IMG/VR virus record: IMGVR_UViG_3300046507_000426
Length of the DNA stretch: 64,000 bases
Reading direction: 5' to 3' (one strand)
Source: a virus
Lineage: Duplodnaviria; Heunggongvirae; Uroviricota; Caudoviricetes
This document shows positions 6,289-54,522 of this stretch, one piece after another. The notes beneath the pieces are model-generated. The model was not told where the DNA came from. It saw only the letters and a program-made list of their open reading frames with translations, and did no database searches. The position numbers and the translations under genes were made by a program. Numbering within the stretch: the first letter of the stretch is position 1; the number at the start of each line of letters is the position of its first letter.

Positions 6289-6298
6289 CTTATACCAA
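6289..6298 (-). promoter_or_regulatory. Extended -10 promoter motif TTGGTATAAG (minus strand)
   Basis: One of 17 or more intergenic copies of plus-strand CTTATACCA(A), each upstream of a minus-strand gene. Confidence 0.5.
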
Positions 6299-28968: not shown

Positions 28969-29247
28969 TTACTTACCCTTCACGGCAGAAGCGCCGCTAG
29001 CAGGCTTTGCTGCAGAAACATGACCGACCGGCACGATAACCGGGGTCTTGGCTACGGGAGCCTTTGCGACGGGTGCCTCGTGAGCAACCGGAGCAGTGTG
29101 GGCTTCAACAACTGCGGTGTGAACCGAAGGTGCCGAGTGAGCTGAAACGGAAACATGACCAGCAGAAGCGTGGCCACCGGAAACGCCATAAGCCATAGCG
29201 GACGTTGCGATAACCATTGCAGCAGCAGCGAGCATCAGTTTTTTCAT
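28969..29247 (-). CDS. Secreted His/Ala/Val-rich small protein
   Basis: Signal peptide MKKLMLAAAAMVIATSAMA; mature part HASAGHVSVSAHSAPSVHTAVVEAHTAPVAHEAPVAKAPVAK repeats. Confidence 0.45.
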   Translation of the reverse strand: MKKLMLAAAAMVIATSAMAYGVSGGHASAGHVSVSAHSAPSVHTAVVEAHTAPVAHEAPVAKAPVAKTPVIVPVGHVSAAKPASGASAVKGK

Positions 29248-29331
29248 TCTTACTTCTTCTTGTTAAATTTGAAAAGGGAAAAAAGGAAGAACCATAATAA
29301 ACTATAGTGCTTCCTAATTAACTTATACCAA

Positions 29332-29359: not shown

Positions 29360-29728
29360 TTACAAACAGCGGTCAATGACTCGGGCGATCTTCTTGAAGC
29401 TGAGTTGGTCAGTGTCGTTCAACGTAGAAAGCTTAGTTTCTTTCCCACGATACGTGACTTTGACATCGGTCGGTACATCAGCCGAGTCCAAAACAGAAGG
29501 ATTGAGTCCAGCCCATTCAGCTACCGCCAGGGGAAGCAAGCCACTAGCGCCCATATATTCGTCTGGCCAGGGTTCTTTCGCCGCAACTTCAGGATGTTCC
29601 TGAGCATGGATGTTGCATAGAACGCCGAGGCAACAGAAACCTTCGTCGTCACGCAACGCACCCGTAGTCTGTTTGTAATCACCGCCGCGCAGTGCCTTGA
29701 TCCATTTGTTCTTGATACGCTTTTTCAT
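29360..29728 (-). CDS. Paralogue 6 of tandem six-gene family (conserved termini, variable core)
   Basis: MKKRIKNKWIKALRSGDYKQ...FCCLGVLCNIH...LSFKKIARVIDRCL. Confidence 0.55.
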   Translation of the reverse strand: MKKRIKNKWIKALRGGDYKQTTGALRDDEGFCCLGVLCNIHAQEHPEVAAKEPWPDEYMGASGLLPLAVAEWAGLNPSVLDSADVPTDVKVTYRGKETKLSTLNDTDQLSFKKIARVIDRCL

Positions 29729-30081
29729 AGTTGTGCTTCGATGAGATCAGCTAGTTGGTTGAAAGAAAATTGCTTGATGTCGTTAAGAACAGAAATATGA
29801 GTTCTCCATTCTTTTGGATAAGCCAGCGAAGCTGGTTGACGCATGTACGGGTTGTTTTCTTCCAAACCCGCCCACTCTTTTACATGATCAGGTAATTCTC
29901 CCGCGATGCTTTCAAACGATTGCTCGCAGTTTAGTTCCTTGTCATGCAAATCACAGAGAACACCAAGACAGCAAAACTTGGGATCTATACCTTCATAAAC
30001 AGTTTTGAGTCTGGTTAAACCCTGTTTGTATTCACCGCTCCGAAGAGCGGCTACCCATTTGGCTTTGACTTCGTTGTTCAC
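29725..30081 (-). CDS. Paralogue 5 of tandem family
   Basis: MNNEVKAKWVAALRSGEYKQ...FCCLGVLCDLH...FSFNQLADLIEAQL. Confidence 0.55.
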   Translation of the reverse strand: MNNEVKAKWVAALRSGEYKQGLTRLKTVYEGIDPKFCCLGVLCDLHDKELNCEQSFESIAGELPDHVKEWAGLEENNPYMRQPASLAYPKEWRTHISVLNDIKQFSFNQLADLIEAQL

Positions 30082-30434
30082 AGTGCGTATTGAATGATGT
30101 CAGCGATTTGAGAAAATGGCAGACCCGAGTCGTTTAGATCTACAAGCGAAACAGAGTCAGTAGTCGGAGTCTCTACGCCAGTGTATCCGAGGTCACTTCC
30201 AAGCTCAGACCATTCTCTAACTTCAATAGGAGGAACGGAATAACCATTGAGCATATGCTTTTCCGGACCTCTTTCTTCTCTGTCAACCCATTCAACTCCG
30301 GTTTCTTTGCCATACAGGTCACAAAGAACGCCTAGGCAACAGAACCCACTAGGACCATTCAGAAATGCATGGCCTTGTTTATACTCTCCGCTGCGAAGCG
30401 CAGCTACCCACTTGGCTTTGATTTCTTGGTTCAT
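30078..30434 (-). CDS. Paralogue 4 of tandem family
   Basis: MNQEIKAKWVAALRSGEYKQ...FCCLGVLCDLY...LPFSQIADIIQYAL. Confidence 0.55.
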   Translation of the reverse strand: MNQEIKAKWVAALRSGEYKQGHAFLNGPSGFCCLGVLCDLYGKETGVEWVDREERGPEKHMLNGYSVPPIEVREWSELGSDLGYTGVETPTTDSVSLVDLNDSGLPFSQIADIIQYAL

Positions 30435-30790
30435 AGTGCGAATTGAATCACGTCAGCGATTTGGTTAAAAGTGAATCCGGAATCGTTAAGAACTGTGAGT
30501 TCCTCAGTTATTCCATCGCGGTTTTTAATATCATTGAGGTATCCGGTTCTGGAGGGAAAACCGGACCAGTCCTGGACTTGGGTAGGAGGAGTACCGATTC
30601 TGTCCAGAAAGATAAACTCTGGCTTGTTATCCTTTTCAGGAACCCATTCAGTTTCAGTATCCTTGGCGTAAATATCGCAGAGGACTCCGAGACAGCAGAA
30701 TCCCTCGTCATTACGCAAGCAATTTTTGGTTTGAGCATACTCACCGCTGCGAAGCGCAGCTACCCACTTGGCTTTGATTTCTTGGTTCAT
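30431..30790 (-). CDS. Paralogue 3 of tandem family
   Basis: MNQEIKAKWVAALRSGEYAQ...FCCLGVLCDIY...FTFNQIADVIQFAL. Confidence 0.55.
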   Translation of the reverse strand: MNQEIKAKWVAALRSGEYAQTKNCLRNDEGFCCLGVLCDIYAKDTETEWVPEKDNKPEFIFLDRIGTPPTQVQDWSGFPSRTGYLNDIKNRDGITEELTVLNDSGFTFNQIADVIQFAL

Positions 30791-31143
30791 TAGAAGAAGT
30801 ACTCGATAACGTCAGCGATTTGAGAAAAGGTGAATTCACCGGAGTCGTTCAGGCTTACCAAGCCTTCCCCATCCCCTTCTCTGGTAAGCAAACCAGGAAC
30901 GAGAGAAGTTTCTGCGAATTCAGCCCAATTAAGAGTTACTTGAGGGGGATACCCCCCACAGCGTTCAACCTCTTGAATCCCAGAGCCAGCATGTTCCCAT
31001 TGCGGACCTCCTTCCTTTGCGTGAACATCGGAAAGGACTCCGAGGCAACAGAACCCATCGTCTCTTTTCAAGTAGCCGACGCTCTGTTTGTACTCACCGC
31101 TGCGAAGCGCAGCTACCCACTTTGCTTTGATTTCTTGGTTCAT
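30790..31143 (-). CDS. Paralogue 2 of tandem family
   Basis: MNQEIKAKWVAALRSGEYKQ...FCCLGVLSDVH...FTFSQIADVIEYFF. Confidence 0.55.
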   Translation of the reverse strand: MNQEIKAKWVAALRSGEYKQSVGYLKRDDGFCCLGVLSDVHAKEGGPQWEHAGSGIQEVERCGGYPPQVTLNWAEFAETSLVPGLLTREGDGEGLVSLNDSGEFTFSQIADVIEYFF

Positions 31144-31556
31144 AGCGTGAATTGAATAACGTCAGCAATCTGGTTGAAGGTAAGCCCACCGTCGTTGAGT
31201 TCGGCCAAAGAATACCCCAAGTAGCCAGGGGTATCTTCAAAGGACTTTGTAAATCCCTGGTAAATTCCAGTATTGGGATTTTCCTTGTCGAGATCGGCCC
31301 ATTTCATAACACTAGCAGGAGGTACAACTTCTGACCCTTCAAATGTACCAATGGAAGTATACTTTTGCAAAACCCTGCTATCTTCCTCCTTAGCGGTTCT
31401 CGGCACCCATTCACCTTCTCCAGTTTTCTTCATGTAAAGATCACAGAGAACGCCAAGACAACACATGCCGCCGTCACCGTTCAAGACATGTTTGGCTTGT
31501 TTGTATTCGCCGCTACGCAGAGCAGAGATCCATTCCTGTTTGATTTCGTTGTTCAT
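31140..31556 (-). CDS. Paralogue 1 of tandem family (start at internal ATG MNNEIKQEW)
   Basis: MNNEIKQEWISALRSGEYKQ...MCCLGVLCDLY...LTFNQIADVIQFTL; longer variable core. Confidence 0.5.
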   Translation of the reverse strand: MNNEIKQEWISALRSGEYKQAKHVLNGDGGMCCLGVLCDLYMKKTGEGEWVPRTAKEEDSRVLQKYTSIGTFEGSEVVPPASVMKWADLDKENPNTGIYQGFTKSFEDTPGYLGYSLAELNDGGLTFNQIADVIQFTL

Positions 31557-31720
31557 TTCGTTACTCCGAGTTTTGCTGTTAGTAGAACGCAGGTGAATCC
31601 AACTACGACACACATGACGTAGCCTGCGAATTTAAGGGTATTACGGCGACGCATTTTGACCAACCAAAAAAGAGAGATGCAGAATTAAAGGCTACTTCTT
31701 ATACAACTCTCTTATACCAA

Positions 31721-31729
31721 AAATGAAGG
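31721..31729 (-). promoter_or_regulatory. TTGGTATAAG promoter
   Basis: Plus cttataccaa upstream of the paralogue array. Confidence 0.45.
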
Positions 31730-31735
31730 TTTAAA

Positions 31736-32266
31736 TTAGCCTCCAGAAGACCAGCCTTCCCGTTCCATCATGGCCATAGCTTCGCCTTCAAAGGCGTCTT
31801 TTAGCAATGCCGGGTCGGCTTCTCTTAGCGCCAGCATCATTGCCAGATTTGCAATGTCTACGGGATCCCCTTTGGGGACATGGCTGACAAGAAGATTCGC
31901 TAATCGTTTTGTACTGCATTGTTCTGGATCATCCCAACCGCTTCTACCCTTCTCACGAGACTTTGCAAGCTTCGCTTTCATCATGGCTGCGAACTTGTCT
32001 ACTGCGAAATCGTCAGGATGAGGCTCCGATACTTTGGAACCTTCCCACACATAGACTAGCTCTTCGAGTTCTTTCAAGGCCGCGTTTCTGTTCTTGTGTT
32101 GACTGCGTTCTGTAATGCATTCGGTCACAATACCGCTAGGGATGTGCGTGATTCTCACACCATTAGCCATTCCTACTCTTTGACCACCTACGGCACCGCC
32201 ATAACAGTCGATGCGTAGGTCTTTAGGGTTAATCGAAACCAAAGGTGTCTGACGCTCTTCTTTCAT
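31736..32266 (-). CDS. Peptide-chain-release-factor GGQ-domain protein (ArfB/PrfH-like peptidyl-tRNA hydrolase domain) with novel acidic C-terminus
   Basis: 176 aa; [46 protein letters not shown] closely resembles RF1/RF2 domain 3 (SGAGGQHVN..VRITHIPTGIVVQCQ.ERSQHKN); lacks codon-recognition domains. Confidence 0.7.
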
Positions 32267-33863: not shown

Positions 33864-34709
33864 TCAGTTACCCATTTTCGGAAGCTGGATAAGAGCCGAA
33901 CTGCCACTGCCGAGTTGATACGTCGGAAGTTGACCGTTCCACTTTTCGATCCACATTTGTTGCAGAATCTCCGGGTTCTTGGCCAGTGCCTGACCACGAA
34001 TAGCCGTAGCTTGTGCTTCGTTTGCAGCGATCTTCAGGTCGGCATCCGAATTGGCAATACGCTTTGCAGCATCTGCCTGGGTTTTCTGCAGCTGGTTCTG
34101 CGACGTGATAGCGTCCATCTTTGCCTGTTGCTGAGCATTGATGGAATCCTGAATCGCAGGAGGCCAACGGAATGCGCCTACGTTCGAGAGCAGTTCAACC
34201 GACAACCCGCTAGGTGCTGCACGCTTGGCGAGTTCAGCGTTAACAGCAACCATGAAGGCCGGAATGTCATTGCTGATCTGCTCGAAGGTAAGCTTACCCG
34301 CGATTTCGTTAAGACTGTCACGGATAAGGTTACGCAAAGGACCGTCGGTAATACCGTTCAGATCCTTGTGGTACTTCTGGAACACAAGCGGAGCACTGTC
34401 TGCAGCGATGTGATACGCAACACCGAAGTCAGCATTGATGGCAACGCCACCCTTTGCCTGGAACGTGATCGACTCGTCGGCCGGATGACCTTCTTCCGGA
34501 GCCTTGCTGTACACGTAGTTTTCCGTGAACGTCGGATACTCGTACACAGTCGTGTTCCAGCCGGTGAAGTACGAACCCGGGCCGAGAACCTTGTTCTGGA
34601 CGCCACGGTCACTGCCGTAGTTATCCACCTGAACACCGACGAAGCCTGCGCCAACCTTGGTACAGGCACCGAGCATGAATACAACGACGATAAGAAGAAG
34701 TTTCTTCAT
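33864..34709 (-). CDS. SPFH/band-7 (prohibitin/HflKC-like) lipoprotein
   Basis: Start at internal ATG gives MKKLLLIVVVFMLGAC lipobox; the body (about 280 aa, Gln/Ala-rich helical C-terminal region) resembles band-7/SPFH proteins. Confidence 0.6.
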   Translation of the reverse strand: MKKLLLIVVVFMLGACTKVGAGFVGVQVDNYGSDRGVQNKVLGPGSYFTGWNTTVYEYPTFTENYVYSKAPEEGHPADESITFQAKGGVAINADFGVAYHIAADSAPLVFQKYHKDLNGITDGPLRNLIRDSLNEIAGKLTFEQISNDIPAFMVAVNAELAKRAAPSGLSVELLSNVGAFRWPPAIQDSINAQQQAKMDAITSQNQLQKTQADAAKRIANSDADLKIAANEAQATAIRGQALAKNPEILQQMWIEKWNGQLPTYQLGSGSSALIQLPKMGN

Positions 34710-34906
34710 TGTGTTTTTTGTTTCTTTGGTTTGAGGAAGAAATACCAACCGCCAAAGGCGATTAGCGGGATGGTCAACCACAGCAGCGGCACGAAGTAAA
34801 TCAGGTCGCCTCCATTATTAACCAACTGCTGTGTTACGGGCAACAGCAGGAACAACAGATAGAGCGTTGCCAAAATCCCGTAGGCAACTGCTGCGATTTT
34901 CTTCAT
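34706..34906 (-). CDS. Small 2-TM membrane protein (possible NfeD-like partner of SPFH protein)
   Basis: 66 aa; two hydrophobic helices; 4-nt overlap with SPFH gene. Confidence 0.4.
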   Translation of the reverse strand: MKKIAAVAYGILATLYLLFLLLPVTQQLVNNGGDLIYFVPLLWLTIPLIAFGGWYFFLKPKKQKTQ

Positions 34907-39440: not shown

Positions 39441-39516
39441 TGGTAGGAACATCGGGGCTCGAACCCGAGACCTTCAGATTTAGAATCCGCTGCTCTGCCA
39501 ACTGAGCTATATTCCC
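39441..39516 (-). tRNA. tRNA with anticodon CTA (putative amber suppressor)
   Basis: Acceptor GGGAATA/TGTTCCT, D-arm GCTC-AGTTGGCA-GAGC, A26, anticodon arm GCGGA-TTCTAAA-TCTGA (U33, anticodon C34-U35-A36, A37), T-arm TCGGG-TTCGAGC-CCCGA, A73-CCA. Confidence 0.5.
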
Positions 39517-52098: not shown

Positions 52099-54522
52099 TT
52101 ACAAACGCGGATCCAGCGTCTTTTCTTCATTCAGTTGCGAGATCATTTTCACAACCAGTTCAGTCAGAGCAGGGCCATTGTCTGCTGTCAGCATTGCCAG
52201 TGCAAGATCGTGTTCCTTGATAGAAACCTTCAGCTTACCGCCGACACGTTTTTGACGACACAGGGCTTCATAACGGTTCTTGTAATCATAGCCATACACA
52301 AGAGTCAGGTAATTTTCATTCCGAACCTTCATATACGGTGCAACATCTGCCGTACCGTCAAGAGGCTTGATTACAAGGCCTTCCATCTTTTCATCAACGG
52401 TTTTACAGTTGAAGAAAGTCTTTGCATTTTCCAAAACCTCTTTATCGTTTTCAAGGTCGATGATTACGATGTCGTCCTGGTTAACCAAGTCAAAGGAATC
52501 TGCAATCTGGAATTTGTCACCAAACACCTTACCGTCAACCTTCAGAATAGAGAACGCACTGTATTCCGGACGGCTTTCCTGAGCATAAATATCAAGGGTT
52601 TCGCCGAATATCTTCAGATCAACCTGACGAGCTTCGACGTCGATTTTTGCCTTGAATCCCAACTTGGCAAATTCCTCATCGTTAGCCAATGCATCCAGTT
52701 CGTAATGTACCAAACCTTCATACGCACGGAACTGTTCGTCAACCAGACTTTTACCAAGGGTCGTCCACGGCAGAAGTTCACCGTCAAGAATCAGTTCTTC
52801 TTGCCAGAAGTCAATACTTTCCCCTTCGTACTTAGCAAGCAATTCCTGAATCATAACGGTGAGGTCTTCTGTCATGCGAATCTTAAAGCCATTACGAGAA
52901 ACCAGGAAACACTCTTCCGGTTTACCGCGATACAGATATGCCTGACAACGTGAACCCATGTACTTCGGTTGAAGCATGACCCGCTTCGTTCCACGACTTT
53001 TGAAATACTCAAGTCCAGCTTCAAGACTTTCGATTTCAGTGTTAGTCGACGGAGCAGGGGCCATCGTTCCTGAAATGTACTGAACTCGGTTTGCGATAGT
53101 ACGCTTCAGAAATCTCATATCTTCCGGCGACAGTTTGTAGTCGTAGATATTGAACGACTTCTGCGGAGGTGCTATCGGAGTCGTCAAGAAGTTCTGAAGA
53201 CCCTTGTGAACTGTTACCTTTTCAGCTGCCTGAACCGAATCAAACCAGTAACGATTTCCTTTATAACAGAAAGCAGTAAGCTTGCCGCCATAAACAGCCC
53301 CAGTATCGAGAAACACCTTGTTACGATGTTCCAGTTTGGCTGCATTGTGAGCAACGTGCCCAAACACATGCAAAGGAAAATTCCCAACAGCTTCCTTGAA
53401 AATAAACTCATAAGCCTTCCGGTAGTCTTCTTTTCGATCACCGTACAGATTGCGCTGAGCCTTAAGTGCTGCAGAATTCATCTTACCCAAATACTTCTGC
53501 TCGCACGGAGCATGGGTTACGTAAACTGTACGGACTTGGTTGCCGTGAATCTTCAAGAACGGAACAGAACAGCGATCGAACAAGTCCACAAGCTCTGCTG
53601 CCAACGTTTCGTCTTTCAACAGAACGTCAAGCGAACTCATGTACTTCGATTCCATCTCCAGATCAGGATTTTTGATTTCACCCTTGATACGCTTCACCGC
53701 ATACGACTCGTGATTGCCGTGGAGAATAATGCCACCGTCGGTGTGAAACTTCCTGGCGAAGGCAATTGCTTTGGCAGTATCATTGCCTTTGTCAATGTAA
53801 TCACCGACAAGAACATTGATGCTATTTGCACCGACCTTAGCTACAAGCTGTTCAGCAGCTTCCGTGTGTTCATGTACATCTCCGATGATATTCACCTGCA
53901 TGTCTCGACCAAGATAGAGCTGAGTAGCTGCGTATTTGCCCAAATCTTCGATTTCAACTTCCAGATCTATCCACTTTTTGGCGTCTCGTTCACGGATACG
54001 AATACAATCATCGTGATCTTTACGACCGAGATTCGGAAGGACGCTTTGTTTGAATCGCTTGGCGCTCGATTCTACAACCCGTTTTTCTTCCTCATTCGAT
54101 TCCGACCAGTACTGATAGTTCGGATATTCAAACGTAATCAATTCAGTACGATATTCGTTTTCTTCAGCGAGTTTACGAATTTCCTTTCGAAACGTATCAT
54201 TCATACCAGTAGTATCAACGATTACGAATTCACTGTTGATCGGGAACGCAATCGCCGCTTTAAACTTCGCCATCATCACGTTGAAAGCTGCTTCCGAAGC
54301 TTCCATCATGACCGGGGCGTAACGATGGAGACTCAAATCATCCAAGACGTTCATTCGTTCAGCATCAGAATTCAAGTTTACAACCTTCGAACCTGCAGCA
54401 AGTCCTGCTTTCATCAACTGAAAGTTCAACGCAAGTTCGAACTGTTTCGAGAATGTGGTTTTACCGCACATCGAAGGGCCAACCAAAATGAAGACTGTGT
54501 GGAGTTTAGTTTGAATTTTCAT
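52099..54522 (-). CDS. pnkp: Bacterial-type polynucleotide kinase-phosphatase with C-terminal ligase domain (Pnkp)
   Basis: 807 aa; N-terminal P-loop GPSMCGKTT (kinase); central metallophosphoesterase motifs IIGDVHEH...GDYIDKGND...LHGNHESY; C-terminal nucleotidyltransferase/ligase KVDG motif (SILKVDGKV). Confidence 0.75.
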   Translation of the reverse strand: MKIQTKLHTVFILVGPSMCGKTTFSKQFELALNFQLMKAGLAAGSKVVNLNSDAERMNVLDDLSLHRYAPVMMEASEAAFNVMMAKFKAAIAFPINSEFVIVDTTGMNDTFRKEIRKLAEENEYRTELITFEYPNYQYWSESNEEEKRVVESSAKRFKQSVLPNLGRKDHDDCIRIRERDAKKWIDLEVEIEDLGKYAATQLYLGRDMQVNIIGDVHEHTEAAEQLVAKVGANSINVLVGDYIDKGNDTAKAIAFARKFHTDGGIILHGNHESYAVKRIKGEIKNPDLEMESKYMSSLDVLLKDETLAAELVDLFDRCSVPFLKIHGNQVRTVYVTHAPCEQKYLGKMNSAALKAQRNLYGDRKEDYRKAYEFIFKEAVGNFPLHVFGHVAHNAAKLEHRNKVFLDTGAVYGGKLTAFCYKGNRYWFDSVQAAEKVTVHKGLQNFLTTPIAPPQKSFNIYDYKLSPEDMRFLKRTIANRVQYISGTMAPAPSTNTEIESLEAGLEYFKSRGTKRVMLQPKYMGSRCQAYLYRGKPEECFLVSRNGFKIRMTEDLTVMIQELLAKYEGESIDFWQEELILDGELLPWTTLGKSLVDEQFRAYEGLVHYELDALANDEEFAKLGFKAKIDVEARQVDLKIFGETLDIYAQESRPEYSAFSILKVDGKVFGDKFQIADSFDLVNQDDIVIIDLENDKEVLENAKTFFNCKTVDEKMEGLVIKPLDGTADVAPYMKVRNENYLTLVYGYDYKNRYEALCRQKRVGGKLKVSIKEHDLALAMLTADNGPALTELVVKMISQLNEEKTLDPRL

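Follow-up and report, generated by a model that had tools for sequence, protein, structure and literature searches.

Tandem DUF8296 paralogues in a tailed-phage genome: organization, evolution and possible function of a six-gene array

Organization of the array and its operon

The window analyzed in this study is a stretch of 64,000 nucleotides from a virus of the class Caudoviricetes (IMG/VR record IMGVR_UViG_3300046507_000426). Six consecutive paralogous small genes encoding proteins of 117-138 aa, as reported in the initial annotation, occupy positions 29360-31556 of its minus strand and were designated c1 (31140..31556, 138 aa, pI 4.7), c2 (30790..31143, 117 aa, pI 4.5), c3 (30431..30790, 119 aa, pI 4.5), c4 (30078..30434, 118 aa, pI 4.5), c5 (29725..30081, 118 aa) and c6 (29360..29728, 122 aa, pI 7.6). 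All six ORFs are intact, and c6 is the sole non-acidic copy (c1-c5 have pI values of 4.5-5.2). Pairwise identity among the proteins is 35-53%, with 24 invariant columns, and the genes are evidently old, diverged paralogues. An assembly duplication artefact was ruled out, as the DNA of the copies is too diverged and a separately assembled, independent JGI contig (L002) matches it with 100% identity across 9,897 nt.

The N- and C-terminal motifs quoted earlier for the six copies were found to be correct by alignment. Mean identity between copies is 67% in the N segment, 26% in the middle and 46% in the C segment. The middle had been described as a hypervariable core unrelated between copies, which proved to be overstated: the loops there are indeed variable, but they surround a conserved (L/P)P..V..W(A/S)G(L/F) helix, whose P and W are invariant in all six copies. 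The two variable, indel-rich loops on either side of this helix comprise about 13-34 and 17-27 residues and are kept between orthologues. Among the individual copies, c2 has its third Cys replaced (CCLGVLSD), and c5 carries a 5-aa insertion ahead of the CCLG motif and begins with a GTG start overlapping the c4 TGA. The genes had been said to abut or to overlap by 4 nt; four junctions do show 4-nt ATGA or GTGA overlaps, whereas c2 and c3 share a 1-nt TAATG overlap.

The array lies directly downstream of a GGQ release-factor-like gene, as noted previously, since an RF-1 gene (31736-32266; Pfam RF-1, E 3.8e-15) adjoins it upstream. The flanking genes encode the RF-1-domain protein, a secreted 92-aa protein, an HNH endonuclease, an SPFH protein and an AAA protein, and no reverse transcriptase was seen among the flanking genes scanned. 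The phage DNA polymerase is 48% identical to that of Salmonella phage Arash and 44% identical to those of Vibrio phages D69/D181/D148. A megablast search of deposited phages with the locus returned no match, and the phage is without a close cultured relative.

A promoter near 31721 had been proposed to drive the array as one operon. Between the RF-1 stop and c1 lies an extended -10-like motif, TGGTATAAG (31711..31719, minus strand). The window contains 14 exact copies of it, every one on the minus strand, where 0.41 would be expected; the extended consensus is tTGGTATAAG..aAtTg. The motif is kept at the same place upstream of the array in L002 and in three relatives (L009, L018 and L005). Inside the array it is absent, being confined to the two ends, and the same holds in four related phages. 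We infer that TGGTATAAG functions as a promoter; the argument rests on its over-representation, because a generic sigma-70/terminator scan performed no better than shuffles. The motif is followed by a 5' leader (31655..31710, minus strand) that is nearly invariant in an alignment of four phages despite flanking proteins that are only 46-60% identical. An Rfam scan of the locus and leader gave no credible match, with one sub-threshold snoRNA chance hit.

Next comes a small ORF of 33 codons, MRRRNTLKFAGYVMCVVVGFTCVLLTAKLGVTK (31553..31654, minus strand), whose translation has a basic N-terminus and about 20 hydrophobic residues, and whose TGA overlaps the c1 ATG (ATGA). Hydrophobic ORFs of 31-33 aa with conservative substitutions were found at the equivalent position in L009, L018 and L005. 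This ORF is lineage-specific (4/115 locus groups vs 0.7% background), and these numbers rule it out as a general DUF8296 companion. An in-frame fusion of the first copy of L018 and L005 to a transmembrane segment was also considered and rejected, as the extension upstream is no more than a stretch lacking stop codons, the hydrophobic peptide being encoded by a separate overlapping ORF in another frame. A Shine-Dalgarno sequence (GGAG) is present for c1 only, while c2-c6 lack one and begin at overlapping stop/start codons; c2-c6 are thus evidently translationally coupled. The downstream boundary (29278..29330, minus strand) consists of the next TGGTATAAG at 29322-29330, then a hairpin at 29284-29315, then a U-run at 29278-29283, and this order after the last copy is kept in L009, L018 and L005. 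The hairpin and U-run were not flagged by the generic terminator scan; the hairpin would serve as the array terminator and/or as the 5' stem-loop of the next transcript. The proposal of one operon is borne out by the motif at both array ends and the coupled cistrons, which support the array as a self-contained phage operon with promoter motif, leader, 33-codon small ORF and six coupled genes.

Family membership, predicted fold and distribution

The family, which was not recognized in the initial annotation, is held in databases as Pfam PF26948 (DUF8296), equivalent to PHROG phrog_18067. All six copies are full-length members (phrog_18067 E 1.7e-23, 3.6e-18, 4.3e-23, 5.2e-22, 8.3e-22 and 2.7e-23 for c1 to c6, covering profile positions 1-126/129 or more). 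The Pfam copy used for the Pfam-A search of the six proteins contained no DUF8296 model, and the PF26948 assignment was made through the precomputed PF26948:DUF8296 tag of the L002 proteins, which are identical to c1-c6. DUF8296/PHROG 18067 is a catalogued family without an assigned function; cluster names in public sources were "hypothetical protein" only, and a literature search on PF26948, DUF8296, phrog_18067, the family motifs and phage paralogue arrays found nothing relevant.

The family-invariant residues W9, L25, C32-C33-L-G-V-L, W75, N102-D103, F108 and I115 (c3 numbering) are present in 6/6 copies and are 96-100% conserved among 214 unique family copies. Every array copy also keeps the near-invariant S15, Q20 and G35. 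The layout of conserved ends and variable middle is a trait of the whole family, single-copy members included, and is not specific to arrays. With a median pI of 4.66, DUF8296 members are mostly acidic, cytoplasmic alpha/beta proteins of about 115 aa.

Modelling of a representative, as suggested earlier, gave a confident, globular AlphaFold2 (AF2) model of c3 (pLDDT 94.2, pTM 0.89), in which the variable segments form separate elements. A PDB fold search with this model found no related solved structure, and none of the solved anti-defence proteins (e.g. the Ocr, ArdA, Acr, Tad, Acb and Gad families in the PDB) matched it in fold. At the sequence level, a PDB search with the six proteins or their profile gave nothing significant and no enzyme or sponge similarity, NCBIfam returned nothing for the six proteins, and PADLOC models gave no match to the six copies at E<=1. 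Pfam-A immunity families (Imm/SUKH) did not match the six copies either, the sole sub-threshold chance match being ATS3 (17 bits vs a cut-off of 27). No informative extra domain was found in longer proteins with the N-terminal module (L145, 521 aa; L149; L114; L118).

A total of 44,862 representatives of DUF8296 (clusters at 50% identity) were obtained at E<=1e-3. Matches in IMG/VR numbered at least >570, vs 79 in 185,579 species genomes, and a plasmid collection contained two, both unannotated. By these counts, DUF8296 is mainly phage-borne and spread over many bacterial phyla. For the locus census, HMM hits of DUF8296 were fixed before gene calling. Neighbour clustering over 115 locus groups revealed no recurrent partner gene, the best neighbour cluster occurring in only 7/115, and in cultured phages the DUF8296 genes lie in accessory, early-type neighbourhoods. 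Alteromonas phage AD45-P1, a cultivable relative, has one copy. In five arrays (L095, L032, L003 from phage B23, L079 and L080), the nearest relative of each copy is found in its own array, and arrays have evidently arisen independently in at least five unrelated lineages. We argue that several diverged copies are selectively useful, because these lineages expanded DUF8296 independently.

Evolution of the array

Syntenic relatives with the slot SPFH-p68-p76-RF1-(array)-p137 carry 4, 6, 6 and 8 copies, so that copy number does vary among related phages, as the initial annotation had suggested checking; a single fused gene was not seen, the relatives carrying separate genes. An RF-1 gene as neighbour is confined to this phage lineage. 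Orthologous relationships could be assigned to individual copies: c1 is closest to L009_c2 (59% identity), c2 falls within a c1-c4 clade, and c5 shares 78% identity and a GTG start with its orthologue L009_c3. The best conserved copy, c6, is 67-73% identical to its orthologues in L009, L018 and L005 and is the last array gene in all four sister phages. The array is evidently a real, actively evolving gene-family expansion, because six diverged copies lie head-to-tail and sister phages carry 4 to 8 copies.

The paralogue-specific loops show 29-82% identity between orthologues vs 11-15% between paralogues. Omega values of 0.08-0.15 for the scaffold and 0.14-0.41 for the loops never exceed 1, in a test that is weak and compatible with episodic positive selection, as dS is near saturation (pS 0.56-0.90). 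The loops of each paralogue thus appear to be maintained by purifying selection between orthologues, with synonymous sites near saturation, and the middle does not look hypervariable in the arms-race sense.

A repeat search identified four junction-spanning direct repeats of ~115 nt each (30023-30137, 30376-30490, 30732-30846 and 31085-31199, minus strand), roughly 355 nt apart, each made up of the 3' end of one gene plus the initial ~58 nt of the gene that follows. Copies of repeat family D1 are 61-84% identical to the reference copy (78%, 61% and 84%), and a second family, D2, was also found. Comparison of c2, c3 and c4 gave identical codons at 16/19, 16/20 and 18/19 positions over codons 1-20, and at 8/13, 6/12 and 1/13 in the conserved block that follows. 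At third codon positions, identity reaches 92% and 79% at the 5' end, amounts to 40% across the CCLGVL block and lies between 52% and 80% at the 3' end. The junction DNA, synonymous sites included, has evidently been homogenized, and the junction repeats would be a suitable substrate for unequal crossing-over or gene conversion. Since the gene junctions are homogenized and copy number varies, the array evidently evolves by birth and death.

Possible function and comparison with known systems

In the mechanism we propose, each copy would be a stand-alone binder or inhibitor, with a shared core carrying out one common action and paralogue-specific loops directing that core at distinct variants of a target that belongs to the host (or to a competing element). 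The array would then be a multi-specificity counter-defence or host-takeover battery, working like a polyimmunity locus, and recombination at the junction repeats would enlarge or shrink it as the host repertoire shifts. DUF8296 proteins possibly block host defences, and a role of the copies as anti-defence proteins or multi-target binders is a plausible hypothesis; such a reading fits because the proteins are small and acidic, are located in accessory regions, have been expanded repeatedly and independently, and have no obligate partner gene. Taken as a whole, the explanation (a coupled operon of old DUF8296 paralogues, a birth-and-death array and a multi-specificity battery) is offered tentatively, as somewhat short of probable. 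Its more ambitious form would make DUF8296 a new-fold, pan-phylum phage effector, with one action in an invariant Cys-Cys/Asn-Asp core and specificity in two exchangeable loops, amplified into junction-repeat arrays against variants of host defences or toxins; this we regard as speculative and rather unlikely.

The conserved polar Cys-Cys/Asn-Asp site would also be compatible with an enzyme or ligand-binding role. DUF8296 might be a small enzyme or a binder of small molecules or metals (e.g. with a thiol-dependent activity, or as a signalling-nucleotide sponge), in which S15, Q20, N102-D103 and the invariant Cys-Cys pair that begins helix 2 would form the active or ligand site; the loops would adjust the range of substrates or the choice of partners, and dosage or range would come from the array. 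The polar residues are almost invariant over 214 unique copies from many phyla (C32 99%, C33 96%, N102 99%, D103 99%, Q20 96% and S15 96%), C32 and C33 open helix H33-45 in the confident c3 model, and a target common to such diverse hosts would more likely be a small molecule or a universal macromolecule. However, the PDB holds no enzyme or sponge alike in fold or sequence, neither a His nor any other evident catalytic partner is conserved, and the occasional replacement of C33 by A or V, together with the 84% conservation of C38, fits a packing role, which makes this explanation an unlikely one, if still a serious competitor.

Alternatively, the copies could be subunits of one hetero-oligomer, the array encoding one multi-subunit machine or scaffold rather than a set of six separate effectors. 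Natural proteins with two or three DUF8296 domains fused in frame, which occur in other lineages (P0121, P0122, P0123, P0231, P0252, P0253 and P0267), and a locus with two adjacent two-domain genes (L160) are consistent with such an assembly, and translational coupling favours co-ordinated, near-stoichiometric synthesis. The AF2 model of the two-domain protein P0121 also has a confident helical linker, but its pTM of 0.71 comes without a PAE map and from an alignment of little depth over the second domain. In most genomes the domain acts by itself, being single-copy in 114/158 sources (about 72%, with two or more copies in 44/158), and sister phages with 4, 6 or 8 copies are not expected of a fixed complex; we consider a hetero-oligomer improbable.

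Largely neutral or selfish amplification, in which a recombination-prone repeat yields redundant copies with no functional diversification, would account for the junction repeats promoting unequal recombination and for the differing copy numbers of relatives. Against it stand six intact ORFs with all family-invariant residues, old copies (35-53% identity) whose orthologues are nevertheless kept across phages at an omega of about 0.1-0.4, and independent expansions in at least five unrelated lineages, and its probability is accordingly very low. Programmed hypervariation by a diversity-generating retroelement or similar cassette, or an assembly artefact, agrees only superficially with the pattern of conserved ends and variable middle and has next to no probability, being refuted by a repeat content of junction and coding-motif repeats with no template/variable repeat pair, by loops differing through indels and at all residue types, by the identical independent assembly and by four diverged relatives with the same architecture.

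DUF8296 ranks among the larger components of phage "dark matter": it comprises about 45,000 clusters at 50% identity, its fold is predicted with confidence and has no solved relative, and no literature on it was found. The locus and its sister phages provide a natural experiment, as the number of diverged copies in one genomic slot is 4, 6 or 8 and the junctions display the substrate for recombination. For screens of anti-defence or host-takeover activity the family is a well-defined and tractable choice, and the six copies and the c6 orthologue group are ready-made specificity variants for pull-downs and structural studies. If the effector reading is true, DUF8296 would be a phage counterpart of bacterial polyimmunity loci and among the largest uncharacterized counter-defence families; if the function is mundane, the array would still be a clean case, in a phage genome, of birth-and-death evolution in which concerted evolution is limited to the junctions.

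Compared with the PF26948/PHROG 18067 family at large, the array copies are typical in length, acidity and layout of conserved ends and variable loops, with nothing different in kind; the difference is six copies at this locus vs one at most loci. Synechococcus phages B3 and B23 (Kyanoviridae; gp84-86 and gp88) likewise carry diverged copies head-to-tail in abutting or overlapping genes, within an accessory region of small hypothetical genes and with homogenized 5' coding DNA (in B23, identity is 90-97% over the first 60 nt but only about 50% between the proteins). These phages, however, belong to an unrelated lineage with independent expansions (the B23 copies are mutually closest), and the B23 array is interrupted by the unrelated gp87 and has neither an RF-1 gene beside it nor a small hydrophobic ORF in its leader.

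The closest analogy for the working of the array is provided by the polyimmunity loci of polymorphic-toxin systems, with SUKH/SMI1-KNR4 and Imm families, which Zhang, Iyer and Aravind (2011-2012) reportedly described as tandem small diverged paralogues with a shared scaffold and varying copy number, read as breadth against target variants. The analogy is functional only and does not imply membership, as the DUF8296 array has neither an Imm/SUKH sequence match nor a PDB fold match, has no polymorphic toxin adjacent, and is phage-encoded in an early-type operon. The hyperplastic internal-protein (IP) locus of T4-like phages holds a variable number of small tandem genes with a conserved N-terminus and a divergent rest; at least IPI* is anti-restriction, and the conserved part is a capsid-targeting peptide of ~10 residues, which is removed by cleavage. 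The array resembles this locus as a variable tandem set of small genes with a conserved N-terminus, but its conserved N-terminal ~45 residues are integral to a confidently predicted fold, its C-terminus is conserved too, and nothing indicates packaging. In poxvirus gene accordions (K3L), recombination expands and contracts a tandem host-antagonist gene whose copies are recent and near-identical. Recombination-driven tandem expansion and contraction is the shared feature here, whereas the paralogues of the DUF8296 array are ancient, individually conserved and homogenized at their junctions only.

Array genes and the DUF8296 family

Six consecutive paralogous genes were found on the minus strand exactly where the initial annotation had placed them: c1 (31140-31556, 138 aa), c2 (30790-31143, 117 aa), c3 (30431-30790, 119 aa), c4 (30078-30434, 118 aa), c5 (29725-30081, 118 aa, GTG start) and c6 (29360-29728, 122 aa). 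Adjacent genes overlap at ATGA or GTGA in four junctions and at TAATG in the fifth. The proteins share 35-53% pairwise identity and 24 invariant columns, and their homology is far beyond chance because each matches the phrog_18067 profile full-length (E-values from 3.6e-18 to 1.7e-23). Proteins c1-c5 are acidic (pI 4.5-5.2) and c6 is neutral (pI 7.6), the family median being 4.66. Averaged over all pairs, identity is highest in the N-terminal segment (67%), lower in the C-terminal segment (46%) and lowest in the middle (26%). The middle, described earlier as unrelated between copies, does contain two variable, indel-rich loops, but a conserved (L/P)P..V..W(A/S)G(L/F) helix lies between them. 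An assembly duplication artefact, a possibility raised in the initial annotation, was ruled out by the high divergence of the c1-c6 DNA and by an independent JGI contig (L002) that is 100% identical across 9,897 nt.

The family had not been recognised at first and is already catalogued as PF26948 (DUF8296) in Pfam and as PHROG 18067, the latter entry being labelled 'unknown function'. The DUF8296 name was taken from precomputed annotations, and the Pfam copy searched directly was without the PF26948 model. NCBIfam, PADLOC and PDB sequence searches with the array proteins returned no match, and the DUF8296 identifiers and motifs were found in no paper. The family is very large: a word-indexed search gave 7,102 matches among 8,000 candidates, and HMMER, run exhaustively against 1.84 billion representatives, gave 44,862 (E<=1e-3) or 30,364 (E<=1e-10). 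It is mainly phage-borne, since at least 570 IMG/VR stretches carry it against 79 matches in 185,579 species genomes (Proteobacteria, Actinobacteria, Bacteroidota, Cyanobacteria, Deinococcus, Chloroflexi, CPR and some archaeal MAGs). Among deposited phages, single-sequence tblastn matched just 12 records, every one annotated as hypothetical.

Conserved ends and a variable middle are present in the array but are a trait of the whole family. Among 113 unrelated members, entropy is high and gaps are frequent at positions 50-67 and 79-97, and in many members the N (1-45) and C (93-118) modules alone are kept, with a shorter or different middle. Across 214 unique copies (c3 numbering), a hydrophobic core including W9, L13, G35, V36 and F108 is near-invariant, as is a polar set of S15 (96%), Q20 (96%), C32 (99%), C33 (96%), N102 (99%) and D103 (99%); conservation of C38 is lower, at 84%, and c2 has Ser in its place. 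A 521-aa protein from a Dehalococcoidia MAG (L145, 6409-7974, plus strand) carries at its N-terminal end the N-terminal module only (profile positions 7-41), the remainder giving just a weak Big_12-like match; the N-terminal module may thus be separable.

Operon structure and genomic context

Fourteen copies of TGGTATAAG, a motif resembling an extended -10 element, are present in the window where chance would give 0.41, every one of them on the minus strand (5' ends at 6297, 11638, 16650, 18552, 22957, 24681, 29330, 31719, 33662, 38179, 46147, 52078, 55910 and 63660). The extended consensus of the motif is tTGGTATAAG..aAtTg, often directly followed by a hairpin and U-run, and the copies have no clear -35 element. 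One copy (31711-31719, minus) lies between the stop of the release-factor-like RF-1 gene (31736) and c1, and the next (29322-29330, minus) lies 30 nt past the c6 stop, followed by a hairpin and U-run. Such a terminator-like element 3' of a -10-type motif is an unusual order. The motif is found at both array ends also in L002 and in the sister phages L009, L018 and L005. The putative promoter and a leader of about 60 nt are near-invariant in an alignment of four phages (window 31655-31735, minus; L009 7818-7896; L018 6266-6346; L005 5832-5912), where the flanking proteins are only 46-60% identical; non-coding DNA is here far better conserved than coding DNA. An Rfam scan of the array locus and leader gave no real match, and a generic sigma-70/terminator scan of the locus was uninformative.

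The first cistron is a 33-codon ORF, MRRRNTLKFAGYVMCVVVGFTCVLLTAKLGVTK (31553-31654, minus), located between the leader and c1 and encoding a basic, then hydrophobic, single-TM-like peptide; its stop codon overlaps the c1 start. Counterparts of 31-33 aa were found in all three relatives (L009, L018 and L005), although this ORF is lineage-specific and not a general DUF8296 companion. A Shine-Dalgarno sequence (GGAG) is present only at c1; c2-c6 lack one, and the start codon of each overlaps the preceding stop codon, implying translational coupling. The proposal of one operon with its own promoter is therefore borne out at the level of sequence features. Because of the bracketing motifs, the conserved leader and the cistron coupling, the array is predicted to have its own promoter and would not be co-transcribed by default with the RF-1-domain gene.

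That gene (31736-32266, minus), which encodes a GGQ protein with a C-terminal domain of unknown function (phrog_8298), neighbours the array together with genes for an SPFH/Band-7 protein (33864-34781, minus), an AAA ATPase, an HNH endonuclease and a secreted 92-aa protein. The last (28969-29247, minus) begins with a signal-peptide-like segment and continues as a repetitive body rich in His, Ala, Val and Pro, matched no PHROG or Pfam entry, and is the first gene after the array, with its own promoter-type motif; L009 has a signal-peptide gene in the same position. Farther away are RNR and a Pnkp-like kinase-phosphatase-ligase (52099-54522, minus). The RF-1/GGQ and Pnkp-like proteins look like a toolkit for translation rescue or tRNA repair after host attack, synteny of the RF-1 gene with the array being confined to this phage lineage. 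Twenty tRNA genes were identified (25310-46096), including one with the amber-reading CUA anticodon (39441-39516, minus). Among 76 long ORFs of the window, TAG is the rarest stop codon (5, with TAA 39 and TGA 32) but does terminate some genes, the HNH gene among them. The CUA tRNA, the rare TAG and the RF-1/GGQ gene may point to suppression or translation-rescue biology.

Neighbour clustering across 115 DUF8296 locus groups revealed no recurrent partner gene, the best clusters, DNA methyltransferase and HNH endonuclease, reaching 7 locus groups each. An SPFH/Band-7 gene lies within a few kb of DUF8296 in this lineage and again in Alteromonas phage AD45-P1 (L158, 7523-8312), which is unrelated to it; SPFH was not recurrent in the clustering, and this proximity may be coincidence. 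In cultured phages, single DUF8296 copies are located in early, nucleotide-metabolism or recombination accessory regions.

Copy number, paralogue lineages and junction repeats

The gene order SPFH-p68-p76-RF1-[array]-p137 is common to the window and four contigs. Copy number, which the initial annotation had proposed to compare among related phages, does vary in this slot: 4 in L009 (a 134-kb contig), 6 in L018 and 8 in L005/L006. All four phages have a clear orthologue of the last gene, c6 (67-73% identity). L009_c3 is the counterpart of c5 (78%) and L009_c2 that of c1 (59%); c1-c4 and L009_c2 form one clade. The L018 and L005 arrays are collinear, L005 having two extra genes. Array orthologues of the window and L009 are 59-79% identical, comparable to the neighbouring accessory genes (RF1 53%, p137 57%, p140 60%), so the array genes are not unusually fast-evolving. 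Loop identity is 29-82% between orthologues versus 11-15% between paralogues, and omega, where estimable, lies at 0.08-0.15 for the scaffold and 0.14-0.41 for the loops, a weak test with synonymous sites near saturation. Each paralogue thus represents a separate lineage that has been maintained.

Over the first 18-20 or so codons, c2, c3 and c4 share 16/19, 16/20 and 18/19 identical codons, whereas the next, equally conserved CCLGVL block shares only 8/13, 6/12 and 1/13. At third codon positions, identity falls from 92% and 79% at the 5' end to 40% in the CCLGVL block and rises again to 52-80% over the final 20 codons; an independent search found four repeats of about 115 nt across gene junctions. 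This junction-limited homogenisation points to gene conversion or unequal crossing-over and provides a substrate for copy-number change; alternatively, junction identity may reflect selection on the mRNA sequence for re-initiation. The same 5' homogenisation is seen in an unrelated cyanophage, Synechococcus phage B23 (L003), where the first 60 nt of the copies are 90-97% identical and the proteins about 50%. The B23 array (gp84, 85, 86 and 88) is interrupted by an unrelated 120-aa gp87 (L003 5731-6093).

Such arrays are common, two or more copies being present in 44 of 158 sources. In L095, L032, B23, L079 and L080 the closest relative of every copy sits in its own array, so expansions were independent in at least five unrelated lineages.

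Possible function and comparison with known systems

Very probably the locus is an operon complete in itself, in which six old DUF8296 paralogues are translationally coupled and undergo birth-and-death evolution via junction repeats. Its function is a far more tentative matter. The anti-defence, multi-target role first suggested is still the likeliest reading. The array could be a battery of independently acting binders or inhibitors that share one core action and differ in their loops from paralogue to paralogue, comparable in operation to a polyimmunity locus or a group of anti-defence proteins. This battery is favoured because the proteins are small and acidic, the location is accessory and early-type, no partner gene recurs, expansions are repeated and independent, and distinct loops are retained.

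Somewhat less probably, DUF8296 is a small enzyme or ligand-binding protein, the main rival, for which the polar Cys-Cys/Asn-Asp/Gln/Ser set, invariant across hosts from many phyla, argues. It is unlikely that the copies are subunits of a hetero-oligomer, an idea kept alive by natural in-frame fusions of two or three domains (P0121, P0122, P0123, P0231, P0252, P0253 and P0267); obligate assembly is opposed by the single copy in most genomes and by array size differing among sister phages. Two adjacent two-domain genes at L160 169-1739 bring four domains together. The AF2 model of the two-domain P0121 (pLDDT 84, pTM 0.71, from a shallow second-domain alignment and with no PAE map) has a confident helical linker, and its pTM exceeds expectation for two independently tumbling domains of about 115 aa, which is suggestive only. 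Neutral amplification, a DGR mechanism and assembly artefact were rejected or judged unlikely as explanations of the array.

The array is a good and clearly delimited target for experiments. DUF8296 and its tandem arrays are already in databases (Pfam, PHROGs and the deposited phages B3 and B23), as a known kind to which no function is attached; new here are the copy-number series across sister phages, concerted evolution limited to gene junctions, repeated independent expansion of the arrays, a family without any solved structural relative, and an operon anatomy that includes a conserved leader and small ORF.
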